A stretch of DNA of 39,838 bases from a bacterium (GCA_043822925.1 JBDRBF010000038.1:1-39838), one strand, 5' to 3'; counted from the stretch's first letter, positions 2,219 through 17,886 are shown. Numbers and translations: made by a program. Notes: generated by a model from the letters alone, not told the origin.

Positions 2219-5200
2219 CTATTTTTTTAACACCTTTAACGCAATTTGAGCTATCTGATTAAAGAACTGATCAGGCTTATTAAAATCAATTTGTATTTCT
2301 TGATTTTTTAACTGTTTACCCAGAATTACTGCGTCAAATTTAATAAGTGGCATTTTGCCCTGATAAACCAATTCAGACATCTTAAAATCAAGGCTCGCTT
2401 TTTGTAGCTTAAATATGCCACCAACAGTATTCGTAACATCTTTAGTCGCATCACCAATATCAATAATCCCTTCTTTTGTATTTTGAACAGCTGCTTGAGC
2501 GACTCTCAATGTTTCACGTGCGGTAAATTCAGCAGTTTCCAACGGCACAATACGAGGGTCAAGACCTTCAATCGCACCAGCAATCACTTTAGCCCACTGC
2601 AAAACGCCCATAGCTGCTTTATGAGCACTCCACAATGCTGCAATCTTAGGCCCAAGCCATACCATTGCACCATACGTCCAAAAATTAAGCCCATTAATCT
2701 CTCTTTGCGTATTATCTATCTCAATATTAATCTTATCAACTTCTCGTTGAGCATCTGTAATTCTTCTGCACATTTTTGCTTTATTACCCTGAGCATCATA
2801 CAAAGCCTTAATTTGAGTTTGAAGTTTTGCTACCTCTGATTGTGCCCATACCAAATCTGCATTAGCTTTGTCAAAATCTTTACGCACATTCGCCTGAATA
2901 TCATTAATCTTTTTTATGATTTTTTTTTCAACAAAATCTCTAAAATCATCTTTGAAATCGCCATGAACCACAAAATCTGTTGTTGAAAGTAAATCTTTTC
3001 CAATTGTTTTCATATCAAGTGCAACTTCAACCATACCACCAAACAACGACGTCTTAGTCATAAACTTGAGACCATCTTTATTAAATATCCCTTCTGTCTG
3101 GCTTTCAGTCTTAAAAATACCCCATTTATCGTTACCAACTTTAAGCTTGCCTGAAAGATAAAACTCTTGCTCTAGTGGCGTAAGCTTCATGGAAAAAATA
3201 GGACCGTCATCAGTGGTGCCATATTTTTTGTCCATCCCAGCACCAGTCAACATAAAAAAGTCGCCTATTTTAATCGTCGAAAGAGCGCCTACGGCTTTCA
3301 CACCCCCTTCAAGAGAAAGGGACATATCCACCATGGCAAAGAAATTTTCCGGAGCCTGTGGGTCAAATATCCTAAAGAAATTCGGCATAATAATTTCGCC
3401 CCGGCATGAAATTCCCGGCTCGATATAAATCTCGCCAATTCGAGCCCCCTTTGGACAAAAACGAATCTCGCCCATATACCCAAATTCTGGAATATTATTA
3501 ACCGGAATCATAATGCCCAAATCGTTAGCAAATTTAACAATATCTTTAAGTTTTATCATTTCATGTTTAACTTTGCCCGTTCCAGGGTCTATTACTTGAG
3601 CCCCAGTCTTAGGATCTATTGCTTCTTTATACAGCTCACCAAGTAAAACAAGATCAGCTATATCAGATGTTGCCTTGAGCGCCATACGCGCAATAGCATC
3701 ACCTATCTTAAGCCCTCCAGTAATTCCAAACACTGTTGGCACACCTGACGCTGGAAAAATTTTATAATCAATACCCAGCTCAAGCCCAAGATCAAAAATA
3801 GCCAATTTGTCTCTCTTTAAACGTAATAACGTCGCTATGCCAAGAGGATCAACCCACATGCCCTTCATGCTGGCAGCTAAACTAGCCGTTTGAACTCCCA
3901 TTTGAAACGCGCCAGTAAATTCAAGTAACTGGTCTTGTGGGGTAGGACGGACTCCAATAGAAGCAAGAACACTCGCCGATGGCCCATCACCACTAATACG
4001 AGCAGCCATTCTTTGAATATAAAACGCAGGCCCTTTTGGTATCTCAAAACCCAACTGCATTGGTATATTTACAGTAAGCATAAGATCAGGCAAACTTGTA
4101 CCAATCGACCCAACTATCTGTAAACTTGTTGGCATCTTACTCAGAGTCTGAGCTATTTGCGCCCGCTGTTCTTCGTCTTTAATATTTTTCAAGACAACGT
4201 TTAATAACGGAATATTAGCAACAAGATTTATGCCCTTTTTAATGTCCAAATTAAGCTTTTCATCGCGATAGCTTTTTGTTGAAACAATAAACTGAGCCCC
4301 TGATAGATCAAGTTCATCAAGCGGCGTCCCTTTTGCTGCGGGAATAGCTTCCGAAATTTTCCAGCCCTTAGCTAAATTCGCTGTTACCAATAAAAAGTCA
4401 GGAAATTTATTAATACAAAGTGTCGTCGAGACATTTAACAACGTACCGGTGCCATATAAATACAAAAGCTTTTGCTTCAAATCAAAGCCGAGCCCAACAT
4501 TTTTAATATTCACATCTTCAAGCCCGGGGATCTTTAATTCTTTGAATGGATAAATAGGCTTATCATACCCCAATTTAGCATCAAACGTTACTTGACCGAT
4601 AGAAGATATCGTTAAAGAAGTTGCCACTTTTCCTAAGTCTAATTTAACTGGTAACTGGCTACCAAGTTCTGTAAAATCTGTAGTACTAGCCAACTTTAAC
4701 GTTGGACTTTTAAATAACTTACTCACCTGAATAAGCACATCACGCGTCACAACAGAATCAAGAATTGTTTTTTCAAATTGGGGGATAATAGAAGATAAAC
4801 GTATTTCTCGCACTTTAGCTTCAAGAAACCCATCAGCATTATCTAGCCCAATACTTAATTCAGTATCTTCTTGACCCGATTTAGAAAAAAGTGACGTACG
4901 GACAAATAATCTTTGTGTTTTTAAGCCAAGCGAAAGATATAATTTTTTAAACGTTAACTTTTTCCAAGGCAAAATTGGAATCTCAAGCGGCTGCTCGCCC
5001 AACAAACTAAAAATAAGATCTTGCCCAGGAATAAATTTGTCTAAACTAAACAAATATTTCTTACCAAATAACGAAGCATTACCATGAACTTGCAAACCAA
5101 ACTGAGAAGAAAAAGCAGCCGATGGCGGGGCCAAAACAAGCGCACCAAGTATTAATGGCTGAGGGTCTTTAAGCGCCCCTGTAAAATAATACTTGCCGAC

Positions 5201-5536
5201 ATCAAGATCAAGCGTCCCTTTAAGAATAAACGTACCAATACGCGGGATCGCAATATCAAAAGAAAATTTAGGCTCACCACGTTTCTCTTCAGTAAGCTCT
5301 TCCCAAAATGGCTTTTGAGTTCCAGACGATGCTGATGGAATTGGCTGTGAAATTATTGGCATTGGCGCAGGAGCAGGCGCAAGTGGAACAGAAGCACTAT
5401 CAGGAGCCCCAACATATTCTGCAACACGAGATCCTGTAGCATCTCCAATAATTTCTTGTAAACTAACCGTCCCAATACCAAGAACTATAAAAATCAAGAT
5501 AAAACACAAATACAAGCGAAACGGTACAGACTTCAT
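2219..5536 (-). CDS. Large exported beta-rich protein with C-terminal coiled coil, function unknown
   Basis: 1105-aa ORF, AGGGGAG SD, N-terminal hydrophobic anchor, Pro-rich linker, long amphipathic beta-strand region, helical C-terminus. Confidence 0.8.
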   Translation of the reverse strand: MKSVPFRLYLCFILIFIVLGIGTVSLQEIIGDATGSRVAEYVGAPDSASVPLAPAPAPMPIISQPIPSASSGTQKPFWEELTEEKRGEPKFSFDIAIPRIGTFILKGTLDLDVGKYYFTGALKDPQPLILGALVLAPPSAAFSSQFGLQVHGNASLFGKKYLFSLDKFIPGQDLIFSLLGEQPLEIPILPWKKLTFKKLYLSLGLKTQRLFVRTSLFSKSGQEDTELSIGLDNADGFLEAKVREIRLSSIIPQFEKTILDSVVTRDVLIQVSKLFKSPTLKLASTTDFTELGSQLPVKLDLGKVATSLTISSIGQVTFDAKLGYDKPIYPFKELKIPGLEDVNIKNVGLGFDLKQKLLYLYGTGTLLNVSTTLCINKFPDFLLVTANLAKGWKISEAIPAAKGTPLDELDLSGAQFIVSTKSYRDEKLNLDIKKGINLVANIPLLNVVLKNIKDEEQRAQIAQTLSKMPTSLQIVGSIGTSLPDLMLTVNIPMQLGFEIPKGPAFYIQRMAARISGDGPSASVLASIGVRPTPQDQLLEFTGAFQMGVQTASLAASMKGMWVDPLGIATLLRLKRDKLAIFDLGLELGIDYKIFPASGVPTVFGITGGLKIGDAIARMALKATSDIADLVLLGELYKEAIDPKTGAQVIDPGTGKVKHEMIKLKDIVKFANDLGIMIPVNNIPEFGYMGEIRFCPKGARIGEIYIEPGISCRGEIIMPNFFRIFDPQAPENFFAMVDMSLSLEGGVKAVGALSTIKIGDFFMLTGAGMDKKYGTTDDGPIFSMKLTPLEQEFYLSGKLKVGNDKWGIFKTESQTEGIFNKDGLKFMTKTSLFGGMVEVALDMKTIGKDLLSTTDFVVHGDFKDDFRDFVEKKIIKKINDIQANVRKDFDKANADLVWAQSEVAKLQTQIKALYDAQGNKAKMCRRITDAQREVDKINIEIDNTQREINGLNFWTYGAMVWLGPKIAALWSAHKAAMGVLQWAKVIAGAIEGLDPRIVPLETAEFTARETLRVAQAAVQNTKEGIIDIGDATKDVTNTVGGIFKLQKASLDFKMSELVYQGKMPLIKFDAVILGKQLKNQEIQIDFNKPDQFFNQIAQIALKVLKK

Positions 5537-5676
5537 ACTATCTCCCCTAAAACAAACGATAAATAATTATGCTCATACTTACATATTCACATGTAAGCAT
5601 GTAAGAACGTTTATTTTATTACTGCATAATATGAATCGATAATTCAAGTATTGAGCAATAATTCTGACCACGCTGC

Positions 5677-7062
5677 CTAGCGCGTAAGTATGTGAATAAC
5701 AGTATTAAGCGTCTTTTCACGCAAGACCGCATGCTTAAGCGTTCCCTCATTAAACGGAACGTTTACTTGATCAATTTTTTCGATAACCGGTTTAAAATAC
5801 ACGAACTCTCGCAACTTACTGTTATTAAACAAGTGCAAATAATTCTGGATATCTTTAAAATCAATTTTAACATCTTCTTGATACGCAATTTTATCAATTA
5901 AAAACTCTTCTTTAAGCTGTTTTTCAGCCAAAAGCTCAGTATATAATTCAAAATCTTTTTGCGATTTATAGACCTGATAATCAGGACGTTCTTTGACAGC
6001 TACTAAAATATCTTCTTGGCGCCTTAAAATTAAATGTTTTGGTATTTCAAATCTATGTTTAGATAAGAATATATGAAATAACTCTTCTATAATTGCTTTG
6101 CGCTGAGAAAGATCATCGCGATAAGAAAAAACTTCCATTAACTTATTATGTATCTCTGCTTTATTTTTCAACTTAAACGTAGACTTAAGCACATCGAGAG
6201 ACAAGCAGGAACCTTTTACTATAGATCTAATCGTAATCAAAAAATTATACTGATAACTATCATAATCATACACAGCCTCACTGCCCAGATCTAAACAGTC
6301 AGTAATAAACGCTTGCTGAATAGATTTATTCAAAAAAAGCTCTTGAAACGGGTCAGCTACTTCATATTTTTTTATACGTATCCAAAAAATCCCCGAAACT
6401 TCTTTATCAAGAAACTGGCCAGCTCGATCAACAAGCGTCGACTTCAGGCAAACCCAATCGCTTTCTTCGACAATTTCGCTTTGCTGTTTTTTATCAGAGA
6501 TAATCTCTTTACCCATAAAATTTACAACTTGTTTATCAAGATCTTTGTATTTCTTTCTCTTTGGAGATCTAAAAGAGAAATGCTTCCATTCTTTTAATTC
6601 AAATGGCTCAACGAGCGAAACATTAAAGTGGTACAAAACTCTTCTTTCTGGCGTTACTTCGACATCTTTTAGCCTTGGGTAATTAGATACATGAATTTTA
6701 CGATCAATAATCTCTTCGAACAAATATCCCATAACTTTGTATTTAAAAAGAAAATCTTTTATTTTCTTCTCTATCTCTCCTTTAAAATTGTCCTCTAAAT
6801 ACTCTTGTGGGACTTCTTTTTGACCAAAACCTGAATAGTTTTTTCTTTTAAATAATTCAATTGTTTGCGCATGAACTACAGCAACTAGTTCCGGCTCAAC
6901 AGTGATTGTTATAATAGAAAAACGCGACGAGACATAATTAAGCGTAAACGTTAGAAAACTTTCTTTCTCCCTTTTTTCGGCCTCAGGATAAACTTTCCCC
7001 ATAGACCCCTCAAAAGAAGGCTCCATTATTTGATTTACATCCATGCCCTGTTCTCCCATCAA
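5677..7062 (-). CDS. tig: Trigger factor-like chaperone (divergent); start uncertain
   Basis: Length and domain order: ITITVEPE..GFGQKEVP (GFRxGKVP-like), central FKBP-like region, C-terminal FEIPKHLI..KIAYQEDVKI..LREKTL. Confidence 0.75.
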   Translation of the reverse strand: MMGEQGMDVNQIMEPSFEGSMGKVYPEAEKREKESFLTFTLNYVSSRFSIITITVEPELVAVVHAQTIELFKRKNYSGFGQKEVPQEYLEDNFKGEIEKKIKDFLFKYKVMGYLFEEIIDRKIHVSNYPRLKDVEVTPERRVLYHFNVSLVEPFELKEWKHFSFRSPKRKKYKDLDKQVVNFMGKEIISDKKQQSEIVEESDWVCLKSTLVDRAGQFLDKEVSGIFWIRIKKYEVADPFQELFLNKSIQQAFITDCLDLGSEAVYDYDSYQYNFLITIRSIVKGSCLSLDVLKSTFKLKNKAEIHNKLMEVFSYRDDLSQRKAIIEELFHIFLSKHRFEIPKHLILRRQEDILVAVKERPDYQVYKSQKDFELYTELLAEKQLKEEFLIDKIAYQEDVKIDFKDIQNYLHLFNNSKLREFVYFKPVIEKIDQVNVPFNEGTLKHAVLREKTLNTVIHILTR

Positions 7063-7141
7063 AATTTTACTATTTTGCGTAGAAAGAAACTTGTACTCAC
7101 AAGATCATATAATCAAATAAAAAAGGGGAAGGTCAAGTAAT

Positions 7142-7228
7142 TGGTGCAAGAGGGGGGACTCGAACCCCCATCCTCTTTCGAGGACTGGCTCCTAAGGCCA
7201 GCGTGTCTACCAATTCCACCACTCTTGC
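7142..7228 (-). tRNA. tRNA-Leu(TAG)
   Basis: GCAAGAG acceptor, anticodon arm CTGGC-CTTAGGA-GCCAG, long variable arm, GTTCGAG T-loop, encoded CCA. Confidence 0.97.
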
Positions 7229-7233
7229 GGATA

Positions 7234-7305
7234 TGGGTCGCCAGGGACTCGAACCCTGAACCTGCAGATTAAGAGTCTGTCGCTCTACCATTGAGCTAGC
7301 AACCC
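7234..7305 (-). tRNA. tRNA-Lys(CTT)
   Basis: GGGTTGC/GCGACCC acceptor, anticodon loop CTCTTAA, GTTCGAG T-loop; CCA not encoded. Confidence 0.95.
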
Positions 7306-7384
7306 ACGAAAAAATAATTATTGGCTTAATCTATCAAATTTAACGAATAAAATAAAGATATGCTTTTTCGCGCTCTTTCAAAGC

Positions 7385-8524
7385 CTAACCCAAGCGCTCC
7401 TGCACAAACTTCATAGTAATATCGTACACTTTTTGCCATGGGATAGCTCTAATCGACTGTGACCGTTTTTCTGTTGTCACAATAAAGCTGTTTTTTGTAT
7501 CAAAAGGCGCCCATTCAGGGTTTTTTTGGCGCATAAGAGCAACAACCGGAACCCCAAGAGCACTAGCCAAATGTATAATTGACGTTTCAACAGAAATCAC
7601 TAAGTCGCAACAGGACATTATCGCAGGTAATTGAAAAAAATTTTCTGTAGCCGAACAAACAAATACATCGTTAAAACCAAGCTTTTTAAAAAATATCGTA
7701 ACTGATTCATAATGTTCTGGTGGCGCATTAACAATAAAACTTACATCACGCCACTCATCAGCTTTTTTAATAACTCGAATAATTTCAGCAAAATTTTCCA
7801 GCGGCCAATCACGTTTTTTATTCTTAGCAAATGCATTAACAAAAAATACTTTGCCAAAATTCTTTTGTTTTTTACCAATACCATACTTTAAAAACCGTAA
7901 TTTTGCATATATGGTCCATACTTTAGGAATATCGATATATGGAGCACACTGATCACCAACAAGCCGAACATTAAATAATTGCTCAAACCAATATGCATAT
8001 AAATCAGTTATATGCTTTATCTCTTTTATATTAGGAGAAATAAAAGCATCAAGTTTAGCAAAAATACGTTTTTTGAAGATTTGATACTTCTTTATTTCCG
8101 GCTTAATCCCGACAAGAAAACCTTTCGGGCTAATTTCACGAGCCAAACACGCGAATTCATAAGATCGTAAAGTAGCCAGAGAAACAACTACTGGGTACTG
8201 TTCACTTATTGCCTGTTTAATAGACCGAGCTCGATCTATAGGTGAATAGGTTTGGTCATAAATTTTATTAAAAAACGGGGTCGCGTTAAGCCAATCAGAC
8301 AACGAAAAACTTTTAAATCTACGCCAACGCCAAAAACAAAAAGTTCGACGCCCTTTATCAACCCATACATCAATTTTAATATGTGGATATTGTTGCGCAA
8401 ACGCTTTAAAAAACGTCTGCAAGTAAACATAATCACCTATTGCTAAATGTGGCAAAAAAAGAATTTTGTTACTTTTTTGCAACAGTTCATGGCTAACCAA
8501 TTGAGAAACCATATGATTCTGCAT
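7385..8524 (-). CDS. Glycosyltransferase family 9 (heptosyltransferase-like)
   Basis: HLAIGD N-terminal motif, KRDWPLENF, DLVISVETSIIHLASALGVPVVAL. Confidence 0.88.
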   Translation of the reverse strand: MQNHMVSQLVSHELLQKSNKILFLPHLAIGDYVYLQTFFKAFAQQYPHIKIDVWVDKGRRTFCFWRWRRFKSFSLSDWLNATPFFNKIYDQTYSPIDRARSIKQAISEQYPVVVSLATLRSYEFACLAREISPKGFLVGIKPEIKKYQIFKKRIFAKLDAFISPNIKEIKHITDLYAYWFEQLFNVRLVGDQCAPYIDIPKVWTIYAKLRFLKYGIGKKQKNFGKVFFVNAFAKNKKRDWPLENFAEIIRVIKKADEWRDVSFIVNAPPEHYESVTIFFKKLGFNDVFVCSATENFFQLPAIMSCCDLVISVETSIIHLASALGVPVVALMRQKNPEWAPFDTKNSFIVTTEKRSQSIRAIPWQKVYDITMKFVQERLG

Positions 8525-8527
8525 CTA

Positions 8528-9421
8528 TTATACGATATTTTGAGTTTGTTCTCGTGCTTTTTCAAGTTCCACTTTAACGTCAACGCACACAGAACTTATA
8601 TCGTAATGTGAACACTTAGCCATCGTTGTATTTGTTTCTCTCAAAAGCTCCTGCAACGTAAAATCAAGGCGTTTACCGTTATCTTTTTTCTCATCACTTA
8701 CCAATAACGTTTCAACACTTTTTAAGTGACTCTTGAACCGTGTAATTTCCTCGTGAACATCAACTTTATTAATTGTCGCATAGAGATCTGACAACTGAAG
8801 CTTTGCAACTTCATCACCAGCTTCTACTTGTACCAACTTTTCATCGATATTCTTCTTTACCGTCAGCATTAATTGCTCAGAAAGAATTTGAACCTGCTCA
8901 ATTTTTTCACCACAAATTTGAAAACGTTTTTGCAAATCTTTAGCAAGAGCAGCACCCTCTTCACAACGAGCGTCAATCAAACGGTCAGTTGCCTGATCGA
9001 TCAAATCTAAAATAATCTTTTCTTCATCTTCAGTAAGCTCGCTCTTACTTGCAACAAAAATATTTGGTTGCTGAAAAAGGTCTGACAACGATAGTTCACC
9101 CGCAACATTAAAACGTTCTTTAATTAATTTTGCTGCCCGTAAAAAAGCTTCAACATTTTTCATTGATGGAGTTACCGCCTCAAAAGCTTCATTATCTTCA
9201 GCAAACCGAATAAAAAGATACACACGACCACGGCGCAATTTTTTTTGCAAAATTTGATGAAGTTTAATCTCCAAGCCACTTAACGCACTTGGAACTTTAC
9301 ATACAAGCTCAAAAAACCGAGAATTAATCGATTTCATTTCAATCGTTAACGATACTCGCCCCAGCCCAGAAACATCGATACTTGCCGTTTTTGTACTAAA
9401 CCCTGTCATACTTACAAGCAC
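8528..9421 (-). CDS. yicC: YicC/YloC family endoribonuclease
   Basis: SMTGF start, EMKSINSRF, DVHEEITRF..H, GKRLDFTLQELLRETNT, EKAREQTQNI. Confidence 0.95.
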   Translation of the reverse strand: MLVSMTGFSTKTASIDVSGLGRVSLTIEMKSINSRFFELVCKVPSALSGLEIKLHQILQKKLRRGRVYLFIRFAEDNEAFEAVTPSMKNVEAFLRAAKLIKERFNVAGELSLSDLFQQPNIFVASKSELTEDEEKIILDLIDQATDRLIDARCEEGAALAKDLQKRFQICGEKIEQVQILSEQLMLTVKKNIDEKLVQVEAGDEVAKLQLSDLYATINKVDVHEEITRFKSHLKSVETLLVSDEKKDNGKRLDFTLQELLRETNTTMAKCSHYDISSVCVDVKVELEKAREQTQNIV

Positions 9422-11439: not shown

Positions 11440-11706
11440 TCAAAACAAATCTGCGTGTTTCCCAGTTCTAATTAATATAATTTCTGTTTTTGTTTTTTTA
11501 TAAATCAATAACCAATTAGGTTCAATATGGCATTCCCAATAATCCCTAAATTCACCCTTGAGTTTGTGATTGCGATTTTTTGGAGGCAACGGCTTCTGAT
11601 TCAACAAAAGCTCAATAATAACTTTAAGCTCCCCCATATCTTTACCACGCTTAACAGACATCACAACGTCTTTATTAGATTGCCGTCGATAAATAGGCGC
11701 CAGCAT
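11440..11706 (-). CDS. yafQ: YafQ-family (RelE superfamily) mRNA interferase toxin
   Basis: NHKLKGEF..WECHIEPNWLLIY..RTGKHADLF. Confidence 0.93.
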   Translation of the reverse strand: MLAPIYRRQSNKDVVMSVKRGKDMGELKVIIELLLNQKPLPPKNRNHKLKGEFRDYWECHIEPNWLLIYKKTKTEIILIRTGKHADLF

Positions 11707-11958
11707 TTAGATACCCAATTTTTTAAATAGATCTTTAGCATCTTTAGCTTTTATAAGCCCCTTTTTATTTTCAGTATCTTTGATAGCTCGCAAGGTTTTT
11801 TTATTTGGTTTTTTTGATTTTAATAAATTCTTTTCTATTGATTCAATAACTATTTCTCGCATACTCTTACCAAGAAAATCAGCCATATCCTTAAGCTTCT
11901 TATGGCATTCTTTTGGAATATCTATTGTTATACGAGACAAATCTCTTTTTCCAATCAT
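11707..11958 (-). CDS. Antitoxin (RHH N-terminus, DinJ-like C-terminus)
   Basis: RITIDIPKECHKKLK..SMREIV ribbon-helix-helix; PNKKTLRAIKD..DLFKKLGI; abuts the toxin start. Confidence 0.85.
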   Translation of the reverse strand: MIGKRDLSRITIDIPKECHKKLKDMADFLGKSMREIVIESIEKNLLKSKKPNKKTLRAIKDTENKKGLIKAKDAKDLFKKLGI

Positions 11959-11985
11959 CAGGTTCTCCTCTTACACATTTTTTAT

Positions 11986-12003
11986 ATTGCTAAATCTAAC
12001 AAT
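11986..12003. promoter_or_regulatory. Putative TA autoregulatory operator
   Basis: Imperfect palindrome ATTGCTAAATCTAACAAT between a minus-strand TG-n-TATATT -10 element (about 12008-12016) and the antitoxin SD. Confidence 0.4.
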
Positions 12004-12122
12004 TTAAATAATACCACAAAGACAAAAGCTCAGTCTATTCCATAGTTTTTTCGATAAAACGTCATAAAATAAACGTTTAGCCTCTTTTTATGAAAACATA
12101 CTAAAATTTTTTACAATAAAAA

Positions 12123-12151
12123 TTGACACCCTGAATTATACGTGCTAGTTT
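12123..12151 (+). promoter_or_regulatory. Sigma70-type promoter for the His-tail ORF/orphan/racemase operon
   Basis: TTGACA - 17 bp - TAGTTT with extended -10 TG. Confidence 0.65.
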
Positions 12152-12251
12152 AAGCGTATATTCATGTAAAATATGTTTACCGAATTTTGTGCCAGTATGC
12201 ATAAAACCATATTTTACCAGGACTAGTTAACGATACGAAGGGAAAAACGCC

Positions 12252-12464
12252 ATGCTTATACAAAAGCAAATGCAGCCAGACGCTTACACAAGCGATCTTT
12301 TATGCACGTTCTTGCGCTTTGCAGCATGCCTCACGCAGCAATTTTTTGCCGTTCTTTCTGTTTTATCTCTCAAATCTTCTGTAATTTCTCAAGCCTCAGC
12401 TATTACTATCAAAAATAATCTTTCTATTCATCGACATCATCACCATCATCATATATCCCATTAA
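12252..12464 (+). CDS. Small ORF with C-terminal poly-His (leader peptide, precursor or metal-binding peptide)
   Basis: GAAGGGA SD, 70 aa ending HRHHHHHHISH-stop; downstream of a good promoter. Confidence 0.55.
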   Translation: MLIQKQMQPDAYTSDLLCTFLRFAACLTQQFFAVLSVLSLKSSVISQASAITIKNNLSIHRHHHHHHISH

Positions 12465-12636
12465 TTTTGCCCCATTAATTTGGGCCTAATATATCCGGGA
12501 AAATAACCAATTTCTTAGTACTATATCTAGTTTTAGTTTACGTTTTTTGCACATTTATACGTTTTTAAACGCATTTTTTTGCGCACAAAAAAACACGCAC
12601 GATTTTATTCGTGTGTTTTAAAAAGAAAGATAAACC

Positions 12637-13668
12637 ATGTTTATATTTAAAAATATAACAAAAGTACTTTTTATACTTCTGGGCCTCTTATTTTTGCAAC
12701 AAGCTCAAGCAACACAGAAAGTAACCGTAGATTTTATAAATAACACACAATTCAAGCTCACAGGAGAATCAAAAAAAACGCTATTACCATCATGCAACCT
12801 CCAAGCAAAACAAACAATAAGCAACCTATGCGACCAAATACAAAAGCTTAAAAAGTCTGACCCTCAAATAATAATATGGTACTCAGGACAAGAGGGTCTT
12901 TCTCAACGATGCTCAGACTTTTATAAAGAAAATCTTTTCAAACCAATACAAAAAAATTACAAGCAAGACCAATTTTGCATCTACCCATATGATCTAAGTG
13001 CTTGGAAGGGCCTATCAAAAACAAATATTTCACTTACCAAGACATACTGCAATCGAGAATCAGACATAAACATAACGCCAGTTTTTTCATGTGATTTTTT
13101 TAAATATCTAGAAAAAGCTCAAGACACAGAACTCGAAACACTTCAGGAAATTCTCAAACAAGAGTTTATTTGGCAAAAAAGTACAAAATCGCCTAAAAAC
13201 ACAATAACGCTCAGAGATCTTCAAGAACCATACTCGCCCAAAAGCTTGCAAGACTTACAAGATATAGACACGGCAAAAATCTATTCTGCCCTCCAATATC
13301 TGGAAGGCTTATGGCTCACAAAAACAATACTCAAAAAAAATCTTAACTTTGCCGACAGATCTCAGGAATCTGACGATACGCCCGAGATTAACATTATTTT
13401 TTTACTTCCTAACGACGAACTTGAGTACTATCAATCAAAATTAGAAAATACTATCTCATTCAAATATGACCTAAACAAACTCATAAGCTCTGACACAGAA
13501 CTAAAAAATCAAGATTTCAACCTCACCATTTCATTTCAAAACTTTAGCTACGCATACAGATACACGAAAAGCACAACAACGAATAACCCTTTTTCTCTTA
13601 GACCATACGTACTTTATTCGGGAGAAAAAATAATAGTAACGCCTAAACAAAACCTGGATTTATTATGA
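12637..13668 (+). CDS. Hypothetical protein, possible class Ic aaRS/CDPS-like Rossmann fold, signal-like N-terminus
   Basis: 343-aa ORF; motifs WYSG, YDLSAW, YSALQYLE, LPNDE; ATGA overlap with the racemase. CDS is confident, fold is inference. Confidence 0.7.
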   Translation: MFIFKNITKVLFILLGLLFLQQAQATQKVTVDFINNTQFKLTGESKKTLLPSCNLQAKQTISNLCDQIQKLKKSDPQIIIWYSGQEGLSQRCSDFYKENLFKPIQKNYKQDQFCIYPYDLSAWKGLSKTNISLTKTYCNRESDINITPVFSCDFFKYLEKAQDTELETLQEILKQEFIWQKSTKSPKNTITLRDLQEPYSPKSLQDLQDIDTAKIYSALQYLEGLWLTKTILKKNLNFADRSQESDDTPEINIIFLLPNDELEYYQSKLENTISFKYDLNKLISSDTELKNQDFNLTISFQNFSYAYRYTKSTTTNNPFSLRPYVLYSGEKIIVTPKQNLDLL

Positions 13669-14426
13669 AAAAAATAGGAATCATAGGAGGTGCTGGACCA
13701 GCCGCCAGCGCCCTGCTCTACAAAAAAATAATACAAAGCTGTCAGCAAAATTTTAATTGCTCACGCGATAGCGATTTTCCTGAAATTATACTTATTAACT
13801 ACCCATTTAGTGAGATGCTTTCTGAAAAACATGCTCAAAAATACAAATTTAAAATTCAAAAAGAGCTCCAGTATTGTTTTGATAAACTTAATAGTTACAA
13901 TGCTGACATAACAATTATCGCTTGTAACACACTGCACACATTTTTAGGCAAAATAAATATCGGCAACCTAGAATTAATAGATCTTGCCCAAACAACACTT
14001 AAGTATGCAACACAGCAAAAATTAAAAAAAATATTAATTCTGGGAACAGAGCAAACCGTCCAAACAGGTTTATATACAAATAAAACACTCACATGTGCCC
14101 CCGTTAACTCAGAACAACAAAAAATAGTTTCGGTAATAATCGACAATATTCTTACGGGTGAATTAAAAACGCAAGACGCATTAACACTCACAACTATTAT
14201 TGCCCAGGCAATAACAAACAACAAAGCTGCCCAACCAGAAACAGGGCAAAAAACAAACACACGCTTTGACGGAGTCATACTCGGTTGCACAGAACTATCA
14301 GTTCTTATCGAACAATACACACTCGAGTTACCAGAACAAACACAAAAAAAAATAACAATATTAGATCCACTAGAAATAGTTACTGAAAAACTAACCCAAA
14401 AACTTTACAACATGCGTAAAAAATAA
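13665..14426 (+). CDS. Aspartate/glutamate racemase family amino-acid racemase (RacX/YgeA-like)
   Basis: KIGIIGGAGPAAS, IACNT (C87), ILGT, LGCTEL (C208): both catalytic cysteines present. Confidence 0.93.
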   Translation: MKKIGIIGGAGPAASALLYKKIIQSCQQNFNCSRDSDFPEIILINYPFSEMLSEKHAQKYKFKIQKELQYCFDKLNSYNADITIIACNTLHTFLGKINIGNLELIDLAQTTLKYATQQKLKKILILGTEQTVQTGLYTNKTLTCAPVNSEQQKIVSVIIDNILTGELKTQDALTLTTIIAQAITNNKAAQPETGQKTNTRFDGVILGCTELSVLIEQYTLELPEQTQKKITILDPLEIVTEKLTQKLYNMRKK

Positions 14427-14439
14427 AAGATACTAAAAA

Positions 14440-14475
14440 AAGAGCGAGCCAAACTACAAAATCTGGCTCGCTCTT
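14440..14475. terminator. Bidirectional intrinsic terminator
   Basis: AAGAGCGAGCCA / TGGCTCGCTCTT inverted repeat between convergent ORFs. Confidence 0.8.
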
Positions 14476-14499
14476 AAATTATAAACTTTAAATTTATTT

Positions 14500-15030
14500 T
14501 TAAATTGTTACTGCCATAAATGGCGCAATATGCCGCTGTAATCCAACGGGCAAATTCGTAAGAGCACTTCTGCTTGCACTTATATATCCTGTAAAAAGTT
14601 GGTCATTATCACCAGGACTCCATACAATACCAGTTTTCCAACCTTGCTTAGAATGCTTACACCAATAAAACTTTCCGTTACGCTTTATACGAGCACAATA
14701 TTCGTCGTTAACCAAAACAACCGTAACATCAGTCACTCTTTTATCTTCAGGCAACACAATTGTATCAATCAAAAAAACCTGAACATACGGGACTTCTTTA
14801 TACTGATGCCGGTCCACCTTAAGTGGATGGAAAAAGAAACTTTTTGCTAAAAGCTCATCGAAGTACACGGTTGTTTTTATCATCTTAATATGGTGAATAG
14901 CTGAAAAGAGAGAACATGAAACAAGAGCGGGCAACGTCTTGCCAGCAAAATCAAGAACCCTAAGCTGAGCTGTATTTAATAGAACGACAGGCTTGTTTTC
15001 TATTTTCTTATCACTAACCAAGGCAGCCAA
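14500..15030 (-). CDS. Hypothetical protein (start uncertain, possibly a truncated remnant)
   Basis: 176-aa ORF ending next to the terminator; TTG start with an in-frame TGA three codons upstream and no clear SD. Confidence 0.45.
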   Translation of the reverse strand: MAALVSDKKIENKPVVLLNTAQLRVLDFAGKTLPALVSCSLFSAIHHIKMIKTTVYFDELLAKSFFFHPLKVDRHQYKEVPYVQVFLIDTIVLPEDKRVTDVTVVLVNDEYCARIKRNGKFYWCKHSKQGWKTGIVWSPGDNDQLFTGYISASRSALTNLPVGLQRHIAPFMAVTI

Positions 15031-15182: not shown

Positions 15183-16064
15183 ATGAAAAAGCAATTACGT
15201 ACTCTTCTTTTGGCCTGTAGCCTGCCGCTTATGCTGGCAATATCAAATACACCGTCGCTTTACTCTGCAAAAAACACTGAATTCAAAGAGACAATCAAGA
15301 AAACAATCAAACAAGCAATAGATACAGCACAAATAAAAGCAAAACTTTTAAGCGATAAAACCAAAAAGTTTATTGCTCAACATAAAAAAGCAATCACCAT
15401 AACTTTAATCGCCCTCTCTCCACTAGCGGCCTATTTCACTTATAAAGGCGCTGCACACTTATTTGGCCAAAAATCTGATCCAAACGCGCCTTGTGAAAAT
15501 GTATGTGGTTACAAGAATGGCAAACCATATGATCGTTGCACAAAATTTGATTTTTATAAAGAAGGAATAGACGCTACTTCGTTGTTAAAAGATACTAAAT
15601 GCACCACCAACACTAAACCAACCACCTGCTATGAATACGACATACAAAAAAATAACGAATTAAAAGCTCAACAAGACGAAGCCTTAAATCAAATTATAAA
15701 AACATGTCAATCAAGCAAAACAACATGCGAAAAAAATTTTGATAAACACATCGAGAATGTTTCCAATAGTTATTGTCCCAATGCATTGGATTCTAACTAT
15801 GTGTGGAATCAAACAAACAATATGAAAACCAATATAAAAAATCTTGAAAAAATCAAAAATAACATGCTCAACATTGAAAAATGCTCAGAGCAAGCCTGCA
15901 AAAATAGCCAAAACGACGAACTCTGCTACTGCTTAAATAACACAGGCGCACCTGTTACATGGAGAAAACACAAAGAAGCCTCTTATAACTGCAAAAACGA
16001 ATGTTCAAAAGCAACCACCAACGCTAGGAACTGTTATAACAATTGCGAGACACAATACAAGTAA
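15183..16064 (+). CDS. Secreted/membrane-anchored Cys-rich protein
   Basis: GGAGG SD, signal peptide, second hydrophobic segment, 16 Cys in the C-terminal domain. Confidence 0.85.
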   Translation: MKKQLRTLLLACSLPLMLAISNTPSLYSAKNTEFKETIKKTIKQAIDTAQIKAKLLSDKTKKFIAQHKKAITITLIALSPLAAYFTYKGAAHLFGQKSDPNAPCENVCGYKNGKPYDRCTKFDFYKEGIDATSLLKDTKCTTNTKPTTCYEYDIQKNNELKAQQDEALNQIIKTCQSSKTTCEKNFDKHIENVSNSYCPNALDSNYVWNQTNNMKTNIKNLEKIKNNMLNIEKCSEQACKNSQNDELCYCLNNTGAPVTWRKHKEASYNCKNECSKATTNARNCYNNCETQYK

Positions 16065-16117: not shown

Positions 16118-16210
16118 TTGCTTTTTAAATACTCACACCGCTACAGGTTTCTTAATTCGCCTCTTTAAAAGCGCAGAATATGCGCTTTTTTTTATTAACA
16201 CATACTTTCT

Positions 16211-16239
16211 TTGACACACATGCGTATTTTATTTATCGT
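16211..16239 (+). promoter_or_regulatory. Sigma70-type promoter for the phospholipase gene
   Basis: TTGACA - 17 bp - TATCGT; supports a start at 16312 rather than 16180. Confidence 0.5.
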
Positions 16240-16311
16240 AAATTAAGCAAAAAACACGCCAGAGAGAAACACGACATAAGCCTGCCCCTTTATAAAAAAA
16301 GAGAGTTAGTT

Positions 16312-17886
16312 ATGTCTATTTCAAACGCAATATCTCAAAAAATTCGTATTCTAAACTTCTTTACACCCAAAATATTGCTTATTTTTCTTACTATTTTCAC
16401 CTTCACGCTTTCTTGCGTATACGGACATATCGGCCAAGAAGAACGCGAATACTTAAACAAACGCAAAGACCTAGTAGCTCAAGCACAAAACCAATACACA
16501 GGCTGCCAATTACAAACACATCCAAAAATTGCTTTTTGTTTCAGTGGTGGTGGCAGCAGGTCTCAAACATGCAGCCTTGGATTCTTACTTGGCGCGGCAA
16601 AAACAGGCCTACAAGAAACAGCAACACACATGGCAGCACTATCAGGTTCAACCTGGAACCTCATCCCCCTCATGACCAGACAAAGCCTCCAAAAAGAAAG
16701 CCTCCTCGATTACAGAACAAATCTACAAAAACGGCTTGAAGCTAAGTATCTTAAAAATCTTAATTTAAAAGAAATATTAAAAAAACTAGCCGTCAAACTC
16801 GCTACCTATGGCACAGTAGAAACTGCCGATATCTGGGGAGCGCTTCTAGCTAATAGATTTATGGGAGACCTAACCCAAGCCGGCCAAACCTATACGCTGG
16901 CATCAATACGAGACCTATTAAACAATACAGATAATCTCCCATTTCCCATCTTTACCGCAATAGTAAAAGACACATTCGATATAATCGGCGAATATGAATG
17001 GTTTGAAATAAACCCTTTTGTTTCTGGATGCCATGACTGGAACCATTTCATCCCAACAGAATCCCTTGGCAGCTATTTTGAAAACAGCAACCTTCTGAAT
17101 AAACGCCCAGAAGAAAGCCTCGGTTTTTTAATGGGAATTTTTGGAAGCCCCTACGATTTAAATATCGGCGACCTGTTCAGACAACTAACCCAATTAATCC
17201 CAGAAACGTTTAAGTACAAATATCTCCTGCTTGGCATTCTAGATCATCTGATAAAAAAATATCACCTTACCGAAACAAACTTCTTACCATCACCAATCGA
17301 TAACCCCACCTATAAATATACAGAATGCCCATACTCAAAAAAATCGATATCTCTCGCTGATGCAGGCATCGATTTTGATTTACCAATAGCTCCCCTACTT
17401 GAACGAAAAGCTGAAATTATCATCTGTTGCGACGCATCTTCAGACGCCACACACTTAGGGTTTCCTGAATTAAAAATGGCTGAACGCTACGCCCGCCTAC
17501 ATAATTACAACTTCCCATCACTCAAATACTATGACCAAATAACAAAGAACATGTTTATATTTAAATATAACGAATACAAAAGAATTACCGATCGCACGAC
17601 GCCCACTATAATTTATATAAGCAATCCAATATCTGAACCGATAACTAAAATGCAGTATTCTAAAGAAGAATTCGATACACTTTGTGATTGCATGCAAAAT
17701 ATAGTTACAAAAAACCAAAACGCTATCGCACACACAATAATAGAAAAAAGCAACCAAGAAAAGACCAACAACTCAAAACATAATTTATGGGATCAAAGAG
17801 AAATCAATACGTATCGAGAAGATACACTAGACATGGCCAAGAAACATAGAGCGTACAGAAAGAAACTCTGGTCACAAAAAGCTTAA
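16312..17886 (+). CDS. cPLA2/lysophospholipase (PLA2_B-like) catalytic domain protein with signal-like N-terminus
   Basis: FSGGGSR oxyanion loop, ALSGSTW nucleophile elbow, LPFPIFTA, WFEINPF, LADAG catalytic Asp, DAS. The ORF track starts at 16180. Confidence 0.88.
   Translation: MSISNAISQKIRILNFFTPKILLIFLTIFTFTLSCVYGHIGQEEREYLNKRKDLVAQAQNQYTGCQLQTHPKIAFCFSGGGSRSQTCSLGFLLGAAKTGLQETATHMAALSGSTWNLIPLMTRQSLQKESLLDYRTNLQKRLEAKYLKNLNLKEILKKLAVKLATYGTVETADIWGALLANRFMGDLTQAGQTYTLASIRDLLNNTDNLPFPIFTAIVKDTFDIIGEYEWFEINPFVSGCHDWNHFIPTESLGSYFENSNLLNKRPEESLGFLMGIFGSPYDLNIGDLFRQLTQLIPETFKYKYLLLGILDHLIKKYHLTETNFLPSPIDNPTYKYTECPYSKKSISLADAGIDFDLPIAPLLERKAEIIICCDASSDATHLGFPELKMAERYARLHNYNFPSLKYYDQITKNMFIFKYNEYKRITDRTTPTIIYISNPISEPITKMQYSKEEFDTLCDCMQNIVTKNQNAIAHTIIEKSNQEKTNNSKHNLWDQREINTYREDTLDMAKKHRAYRKKLWSQKA

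Follow-up and report, generated by a model that had tools for sequence, protein, structure and literature searches.

A predicted exported, synthetase-like protein coupled to an amino-acid racemase in a small-genome bacterium

The window analysed here is the 39,838-nucleotide (nt) contig C38 (JBDRBF010000038.1:1-39838) of the bacterial assembly GCA_043822925.1, a genome of 1.52 Mb in 86 contigs that is 92% complete and has a G+C content of ~35%. On its plus strand a gene encoding a 343-aa protein overlaps a following gene for a 253-aa amino-acid racemase, and a 70-codon open reading frame (ORF) with a histidine-rich end lies upstream (Table 1). The 343-aa protein belongs to a family that appears to be undescribed and whose predicted fold resembles that of class I aminoacyl-tRNA synthetases (aaRS). 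We suggest, as a possibility that falls somewhat short of an even chance, that the coupled gene pair is an accessory amino-acid acquisition module of this small-genome bacterium. The organism is probably of the Babeliales type, intracellular and auxotrophic for histidine; Babeliales and Chlamydiota are obligately intracellular lineages, and the genomes of the phylum used for comparison measure, as far as listed, 0.8-1.8 Mb.

Table 1. Features in and around the coupled gene pair, with coordinates counted from the first nucleotide of the window
Feature	Coordinates	Strand	Remarks
YafQ toxin (9.9e-29) and ParD/RelB-like antitoxin	11440-11958	-	directly upstream, divergent from the His-tailed ORF
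Promoter-like site, TTGACA, 17-nt spacer ending TGC, TAGTTT	12123-12151	+	read from sequence
70-aa ORF, C-terminus HRHHHHHHISH	12252-12464	+	8 His within the last 11 codons
Hairpin of 8 bp (ACGCACGA/UCGUGUGU) followed by UUUU	12595-12620	+	-11.1 kcal/mol; 17 nt ahead of the start codon of the 343-aa gene
343-aa member of unnamed family, class I aaRS-like Rossmann fold	12637-13668	+	motifs WYxGxxGL, YDLxAW, DTxxxYSALQYLEG, FLLPxxExxYY
Predicted Sec signal peptide, residues 1-26, MFIFKNITKVLFILLGLLFLQQAQA followed by TQ	12637-12714	+	hydrophobicity heuristic, score 2.77
Asp/Glu-family amino-acid racemase independent of pyridoxal phosphate, 253 aa	13665-14426	+	ATGA overlap with the 343-aa gene; PF01177 2e-17
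Hairpin of 16 bp, GC-rich, between convergent genes	14440-14475		T-run on the minus strand

The original prediction, made from the sequence of the window alone, had called the 343-aa protein an orphan. Indeed neither Pfam nor NCBIfam gave a match and a word-indexed search returned 7 relatives; an exhaustive search, by comparison, found 215 cluster representatives at E<=1e-3 (118 of them at E<=1e-10), so that the protein is a member of a family of at least 215 clusters at 50% identity. We analysed 152 members, namely the best 150 of the 215 and two from the word-indexed search; 124 carry the first motif, WYxGxxG, and 80 make up the alignment. Searching these 80 against Pfam at E<=1 returned scattered single matches only, and no description of the family was found in a full-text literature search that had subscription journals and supplements outside its scope. 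The family has no Pfam or NCBIfam model and appears to be undescribed. Residues W123, E223 and E261 are invariant in the alignment, at least 90% of the sequences share D119, D211, Y216, Q220, Y221, Y264 and Y265, and no serine other than S182 and S217 falls in a conserved column. The family is present in 9 of 261 genomes of the phylum, its named members come from Chlamydiota, and viral contigs held no relative. The ESM Atlas offered no usable lead (best feature score 0.75), its model of the 343-aa protein being poor (pLDDT 0.32), and a 24-residue match from a single-protein scan of genome contigs was spurious.

The window protein is predicted to be exported. Its N terminus is K-rich, then hydrophobic and then shows an AQA segment, and the cytoplasmic homologues start at the conserved strand that follows this putative signal peptide. 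A signal-peptide-like N terminus is found in 17 of the 124 motif-carrying members, the window protein included, and these are concentrated among its nearest relatives; the other 107 begin straight at the first conserved strand. In most of the exported members, position 83 is Ser, Gly or Thr and GL is followed by Ser or Thr; 70 of the 107 have Lys or Arg at this second place. A tree of 37 rows shows the window protein in an exported clade of 11 rows (support 96/94), besides a second exported clade made of tandem paralogues (100/100) and a cytoplasmic clade (95/92). The divergent second clade consists of paralogue pairs of 280-400 aa at L024, L025, L026 and L028 (genomes G069, G064, G053 and G186), which lie behind the same type of ABC importer as described below in two of the four genomes.

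A model of the protein was obtained with AlphaFold using the 80-sequence alignment (pLDDT 87.5, pTM 0.88) and submitted to an exhaustive structural search, as distinct from Foldseek. Among the top 50 matches, 44 are class I aaRS, cyclodipeptide synthases (CDPS) or aaRS-like ligases, at Z 7.4-4.5: 33 class I synthetases (TyrRS, TrpRS, ArgRS, GlnRS, CysRS, MetRS, GluRS and LysRS-I), 8 CDPS and three rows of aaRS-like ligases (MshC, BshC and a PyrN domain), the remaining 6 being unrelated. Human mini-TyrRS was the best match (1N3L; Z 7.4 over 178 residues, root-mean-square deviation 4.1) and mitochondrial TyrRS reached Z 7.2 (2PID), and a model of lower confidence gave the same fold picture. Since Z values of this size, up to 7.4, fall in the range that the search tool calls common, the evidence for the fold lies in the near-uniform identity of the matches and not in their strength. 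A search of PDB sequences with the family profile found no synthetase (best E 0.18).

As for HIGH and KMSKS, the signatures of ATP chemistry, no His or Lys occurs among the invariant or 90%-conserved columns of the 80 sequences; the bacterium's own TyrRS shows HLGH and KMSKS. Read by eye and not from an alignment, G84, D119 and Y216xxxQ220xxE223 of the family correspond to G51, D86 and Y181xxxQ185xxD188 of that TyrRS, in the same order and with spacings of 35 and 97 against 35 and 95 residues; in TyrRS these residues hold the amino group and the hydroxyl of the substrate. On the model, the domain can be read as a synthetase-derived amino-acid pocket without ATP chemistry.

Additional hints came from domain fusions. 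The ten longest of the 152 members were scanned against Pfam, and eight of them bear an added domain. In P0165 and P0166 the family domain precedes a full-length HisRS-like enzyme (TIGR00442, 223-225 bits), whereas in P0204 it stands behind a HisRS that scores above the equivalog cut-off (309.7 against 286.75), and in P0207 little beyond the anticodon-binding domain remains. A RimJ/RimL-type GNAT is added in P0208, P0214 and P0219, and an M15 dipeptidase in P0267; the cluster of P0207 and P0267 are named as Chlamydiota and Anoxychlamydiales. The two HisRS architectures occupy different positions in the tree, which implies at least two separate origins of this fusion. What the fusion partners have in common are the themes of amino acids, D-amino acids and tRNA(His), and it is chiefly on their account that a tRNA-linked activity in the cytoplasmic clade should not be dismissed. 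Fused forms of greater length did not turn up when the family alignment was used as query, which is weak evidence.

The original prediction had gone further and proposed that a CDPS-like, aminoacyl-tRNA-dependent enzyme and the racemase together make a small D-amino-acid peptide, possibly with histidine. Its description of the 343-aa protein as aaRS/CDPS-like holds at the level of the fold: the 8 CDPS structures score Z 6.8-5.1, and the domain is CDPS-sized and devoid of ATP motifs. Canonical CDPS genes are recorded from intracellular bacteria, chlamydiae included (PMC2922099 and PMC4159871). The latter source has Y178 and E182 of AlbC positioning the alpha-amino group from one helix; the family's Y216xxxQ220xxE223, within a motif Y[SA]x[hydrophobic]Q[YF][LIV]E found in 131 of the 152 members, lies on the helix after the insertion and was likened to the AlbC pair by sequence only. 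The HisRS fusions in both orders, the anticodon-binding remnant and the M15 dipeptidase, fused in P0267 and adjoining a family gene at locus L040, would also suit such a pathway. Against it, the CDPS model PF16715 matched none of the 80 family members at E<=1 and nothing in the bacterium's own genome, with a positive B. subtilis control. CDPS catalysis requires a conserved serine nucleophile (PMC4159871), to which S83 was likened by its position after strand 1 alone; among the 124 motif-carrying members this residue is Ser in just 18, and Ile (51) is commonest, with Val in 14 and Glu in 12. On these two counts, the missing PF16715 match and the rarity of Ser, the family is not, judged from its sequences, a CDPS family. 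Besides, the window protein and its whole clade have predicted signal peptides, and an exported protein should not meet aminoacyl-tRNA in the bacterial cytoplasm; nor are tailoring or export genes typical of CDPS clusters seen nearby. A D-amino-acid peptide pathway thus fares poorly and seems to us very unlikely.

We turned to the gene neighbourhoods of the family, for which metagenome contigs were scanned with a 9-sequence family alignment. Besides the window, genomes contribute 8 informative loci and metagenomes 5, 13 in all, after leaving out two metagenome loci that duplicate genome loci and one 1.2-kb contig without flanks. More often than any other neighbour, an amino-acid ABC importer (SBP_bac_3, permease and ABC ATPase) adjoins the family gene, at 7 of the 13 loci (G155, G152, G064, G053, G216, L037 and L040). 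In agreement with this, ABC_tran (5), SBP_bac_3 (4) and BPD_transp_1 (4) come out on top among 73 neighbour ORFs from 10 loci, G152 and L040 being two more loci. The binding protein associated with the family is closest to structures of the arginine-binding ArtJ of Chlamydia (6e-29), and the subfamily model nearest to it is that for Lys/Arg/Orn, yet it stays below the cut-off of that model.

A racemase gene follows the family gene at three of the loci, all of them within the exported clade of the window protein. At G152 the two overlap by ATGA, at L039 their codons abut, and at L040 the racemase comes after an overlapping gene for an exported M15 dipeptidase of the D-Ala-D-Ala type. The L040 string (4421-9421) runs, with overlapping stops and starts, through an ArtJ-like binding protein, a permease, the family protein, the exported M15 dipeptidase, the racemase and a beta-eliminating lyase resembling threonine aldolase. 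Two further candidate pairs are P0002/P0010 and P0008/P0049, the two homologues of each coming from contigs of equal length. The co-occurrence anticipated by the original prediction was therefore borne out in part, the pair recurring in other genomes (3/13 loci) but most family loci lacking a racemase and the ABC importer being the dominant partner. Within the phylum, the family and the racemase are accessory genes. In this genome the pair stands by itself, preceded by an upstream region of its own; the orthologue of the ArtJ-like importer is split over contig ends (C73:13927-14388 and C51:1-1012) and, unlike in relatives, has no family gene behind it. By tblastn of 11960-12640, remnants of ABC transporter or M15 genes were not found.

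The racemase itself is as had been foreseen, with regard both to the ATGA coupling and to the two catalytic cysteines. It matches PF01177 at 64.1 bits against a cut-off of 31, over model positions 1-209 of 211. Cys87 (ACNTLH) and Cys208 (GCTE) align with both catalytic Cys of the Pyrococcus horikoshii aspartate racemase 1JFL, Cys87 being aligned with Ala in the mutant entry 2DX7. Its closest named homologues come from assemblies of Babeliales and Chlamydiota. Such a racemase is present in 10 of the 261 phylum genomes and, where it occurs without the family gene, has different neighbours, such as a D-2-hydroxyacid dehydrogenase or a YbaK-type editing domain. In genome G007, from another genus, a racemase homologue adjoins a stand-alone YbaK-type aminoacyl-tRNA editing domain (L075 915-1307; PF04073 6.5e-27), a second, independent hint that ties this type of racemase to aminoacyl-tRNA quality control.

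These distributions raise the question of whether the two genes work together at all. The racemase might make D-Asp or D-Glu for the cell wall or general metabolism, with the 343-aa protein as an unrelated envelope protein encoded upstream. This would explain why the racemase has other neighbours in the 8 of its 10 genomes that have no family gene, and why the family is found without it at most loci. In contrast, the pair with overlapping or abutting codons is seen in two genera (G000 and G152) and on two metagenome contigs, and, with the two rare genes occurring in just 9 and 10 of 261 genomes, repeated adjacency by chance is very unlikely. We consider independent functions unlikely.

The analysis shows the family itself, its fold resemblance, the coupling of the genes, the neighbour statistics and the residues of the racemase. 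In the mechanism that we propose, a Sec signal peptide would export the 343-aa protein, whose domain would be a strongly diverged class Ic (TyrRS-like) core with its ATP motifs lost. An acidic pocket lined by Tyr and Trp would hold an amino acid or aminoacyl compound by its alpha-amino group. Outside the cytoplasm the protein would bind or release an amino acid, which may be basic or a D-form; any catalysis on its part is conjectural. The ArtJ-like ABC importer encoded elsewhere in this genome would take that amino acid up, and the cytoplasmic two-cysteine racemase would then interconvert D and L forms. Acquisition is favoured over peptide biosynthesis by the predicted export and by the conserved partners, namely the importer, the racemase and, in one locus, the D-Ala-D-Ala-type dipeptidase. 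Likewise, the second option of the original prediction, a system for scavenging amino acids from a host, fits better than its peptide pathway. The direction of flux and the class of ligand are conjectural as well.

Several points weigh against this proposal. Ten of the 13 other family loci have no racemase, both genes are found together in just 2 of the 261 phylum genomes (this one and G152) and 8 of the 10 genomes with the racemase have no family gene; in the window itself no transporter adjoins the pair. The fold similarity is moderate, as the range of the Z values shows. Foldseek with the better model found nothing in the PDB at E<=1e-3, its rows of best probability being TyrRS, and hhalign against profiles of the phylum's TyrRS and TrpRS found nothing (probability 0.05-0.08%), which is why the motif correspondence is a reading by eye. 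The HisRS and GNAT fusions of the cytoplasmic clade point to a tRNA-linked chemistry, and binding or processing outside the cytoplasm leaves this unexplained. We know of no Asp/Glu-type racemase that acts on basic amino acids, an ill fit with an ArtJ-like importer. A Foldseek match of the lower-confidence model to schlafen (E 6e-4) was rejected at a TM score of 0.12, and TyrRS and CDPS rows came after it at E ~0.01.

The signal peptide and the fold are open to another explanation, in which the 343-aa protein is an exported, host-directed effector that acts on host aminoacyl-tRNA, tRNA or amino-acid pools, and the racemase is a mere metabolic neighbour. The fold would suit an aminoacyl-adenylate or the CCA end of a tRNA, the cytoplasmic clade has tRNA-linked fusions, and the named relatives of both proteins belong to the intracellular lineages already mentioned. 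The stretch also holds other effector-like genes, for instance one at 16180-17886 (+) for a 568-aa PLA2_B protein with a eukaryote-type lysophospholipase/cPLA2 catalytic domain (PF01735, 4.5e-24), which resembles a host-directed effector of an intracellular bacterium. Yet a Sec signal by itself reaches the periplasm only, and the tight linkage of the family to an inner-membrane ABC importer at 7 of the 13 loci suggests a periplasmic job; the lack of a homologue in viral contigs is a weak and partly relevant negative. We regard an effector role as quite unlikely.

Next, we considered how the pair might be expressed. The original prediction had described a self-contained unit with one promoter, the His-tailed ORF, both genes and a terminator, next to a toxin-antitoxin module. 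The module is there, as a YafQ and ParD/RelB-like pair, and so is the His-tailed ORF. The promoter hexamers were located as described, with a perfect -35 (TTGACA, 12123-12128) and a weak -10 (TAGTTT, 12146-12151, 3/6) directly preceded by TGC; however, a consensus promoter scan requiring >=4/6 in each hexamer does not list the site. As that scan omits it and promoter-like sites show no excess (9 observed against 10.9 expected), this promoter is merely plausible. On an independent groundwater metagenome contig that is otherwise identical, a 1-nt deletion at 12107 and a G>T change at 12156 both fall outside the promoter hexamers. The idea of a unit read from one promoter is undermined by the 8-bp hairpin with its UUUU, the stem of which (12595-12616) intervenes between the His-tailed ORF and the 343-aa gene; the predicted folding of the region 12400-12640 has z = -3.0. 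After the racemase a hairpin is indeed present, but its T-run faces the minus strand and serves the convergent gene, the plus strand offering only an A-run before the stem. Over this hairpin, Rfam gave an L20 leader-like match on the minus strand (14430-14581) at 29.3 bits against a gathering threshold of 58.7 (E 0.0046), most likely by chance, and a microRNA match within 11900-14700 was rejected. No RNA run was listed for the stretch and one metatranscriptome gave no contig over it, which bears neither way on transcription.

The ORF and hairpin upstream of the pair recall an attenuator. Across the six frames of the 1.52-Mb genome there is no run of >=6 His other than this His6 (0.0008 such runs expected for independent, identically distributed residues); the run ends 3 codons before the stop, and the ORF lies 172 nt upstream of the 343-aa gene. 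The genome encodes one canonical hisS, and histidinol dehydrogenase has no match in it, at 92% completeness. A leader that senses histidine is attractive in the light of this unique run, of the hisS and histidinol dehydrogenase picture and of the HisRS fusions: the ORF would report the charging of His-tRNA(His) and control read-through of the 12595-12616 hairpin, which separates it from the gene, and the downstream proteins would supply histidine. The fusions, independent at least twice, were seen after and independently of the original prediction's remark on a possible link to histidine, to which they lend independent support, and the associated importer is of the Lys/Arg/Orn/His type. The His-tailed ORF, on the other hand, is not kept in relatives. 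It has no Pfam or NCBIfam match and no significant homologue in 34 other genomes of the organism's family (best E 0.008), although the groundwater contig carries it identically; in the relatives G152 and L040 its place upstream is taken by ABC genes. In constrained folding the hairpin persists whether the ribosome is set on the His codons, on the stop codon or left out, no antiterminator appears, and the 5' arm gains no other partner once the 3' arm is blocked. Furthermore, 130 nt separate the stop codon of the ORF from the hairpin, 70 codons are long for a leader, and neither the Rfam His_leader nor T-box models match within 11900-14700 at E<=1. The run is a (CAT)n-like simple repeat, and slippage can create such runs. 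A His-specific unit is, in our view, improbable.

A broader reading would join these threads. An undescribed, TyrRS-derived family that has lost its ATP motifs would act on aminoacyl esters or amino acids, notably histidine or His-tRNA(His). Its cytoplasmic relatives, some of them in Chlamydiota, are joined to a HisRS either before or behind it, to what is left of an anticodon-binding domain, or to GNAT or M15 domains, and in this phylum the protein would be exported and wired to basic-amino-acid importers and a racemase for the harvesting of host amino acids; here, the His-codon ORF would sense histidine and gate expression. As a whole, this scenario is improbable.

Elsewhere on the stretch, a 293-aa cysteine-rich protein with a signal-like N terminus (15183-16064, +) and a 176-aa protein (14500-15030, -) match neither Pfam nor NCBIfam. 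The stretch also has six tRNA genes, among them two for tRNA-Ala and two for tRNA-Leu, and its GC skew is negative along the whole stretch (-0.05 to -0.40).

CDPS and the ligases MshC and BshC are earlier cases in which a class I synthetase core was put to a new use, and each of them revealed new chemistry. Here the valuable part appears to be the apparently undescribed family together with its HisRS fusions. The fusions and the operons with importers, racemase and dipeptidase bear on how intracellular bacteria obtain and handle amino acids, D-forms included. If the domain truly acts on aminoacyl-tRNA or aminoacyl esters, tRNA-linked enzymology would gain a new branch; should it prove to do no more than bind, it would still be a new type of periplasmic amino-acid receptor.

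The locus was also compared with known systems. With the hisL attenuator of enterobacteria, whose leader has ~16 codons, it has in common a short ORF that ends in a run of His codons, with a hairpin and then a U-run between this ORF and the structural genes; unlike hisL, it has 70 codons, a stop-to-hairpin gap of 130 nt, no antiterminator pairing and no Rfam match, and it is not kept in relatives. The class Ic enzymes TyrRS and TrpRS provide the best fold matches, and the bacterium's own TyrRS has G, D and YxxxQxx[D/E] in the same order and at nearly the same distances as the family, but the family has no HIGH, KMSKS, anticodon-binding domain or profile similarity and the window clade is predicted to be exported. 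The CDPS (AlbC, YvmC and Rv2275) resemble the family as single-domain, class Ic-derived Rossmann folds of about 230-280 residues without ATP motifs and with a helical insertion at the CP1 site, their structures match the window model as given above, and both groups occur in intracellular bacteria (PMC2922099). They differ by the PF16715 signature and the conserved serine nucleophile, neither of which the family has, by the predicted export of the window clade, by the helix motif, YxxxQxxE against Y178/E182 of AlbC (PMC4159871), and by the neighbours, since family genes lie beside those for an amino-acid importer, a racemase or an M15 peptidase and not beside tailoring enzymes.

The racemase aligns with the 1JFL aspartate racemase over its full length (E 7.8e-16) and shares with it PF01177 and both catalytic cysteines, while an insertion of 15-25 residues at about residues 185-201 sets it apart. 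It also scores under every curated cut-off of the named subfamilies (asp_race TIGR00035, 86.1 against 93.1 bits; CuyB, 85.2 against 190). Finally, the ddp operon of Escherichia coli and PcgL of Salmonella pair a D-Ala-D-Ala dipeptidase with an ABC importer in the salvage of cell-wall D-amino acids. The window pair, unlike these, has no adjoining dipeptidase or importer, ddp has no synthetase-like counterpart, and the importer of the L040 type is of the ArtJ-like amino-acid type and not of the dipeptide type. The likeness lies in L040, where an exported M15 dipeptidase, ABC importer genes, a racemase and a family gene are joined in one overlapping string.

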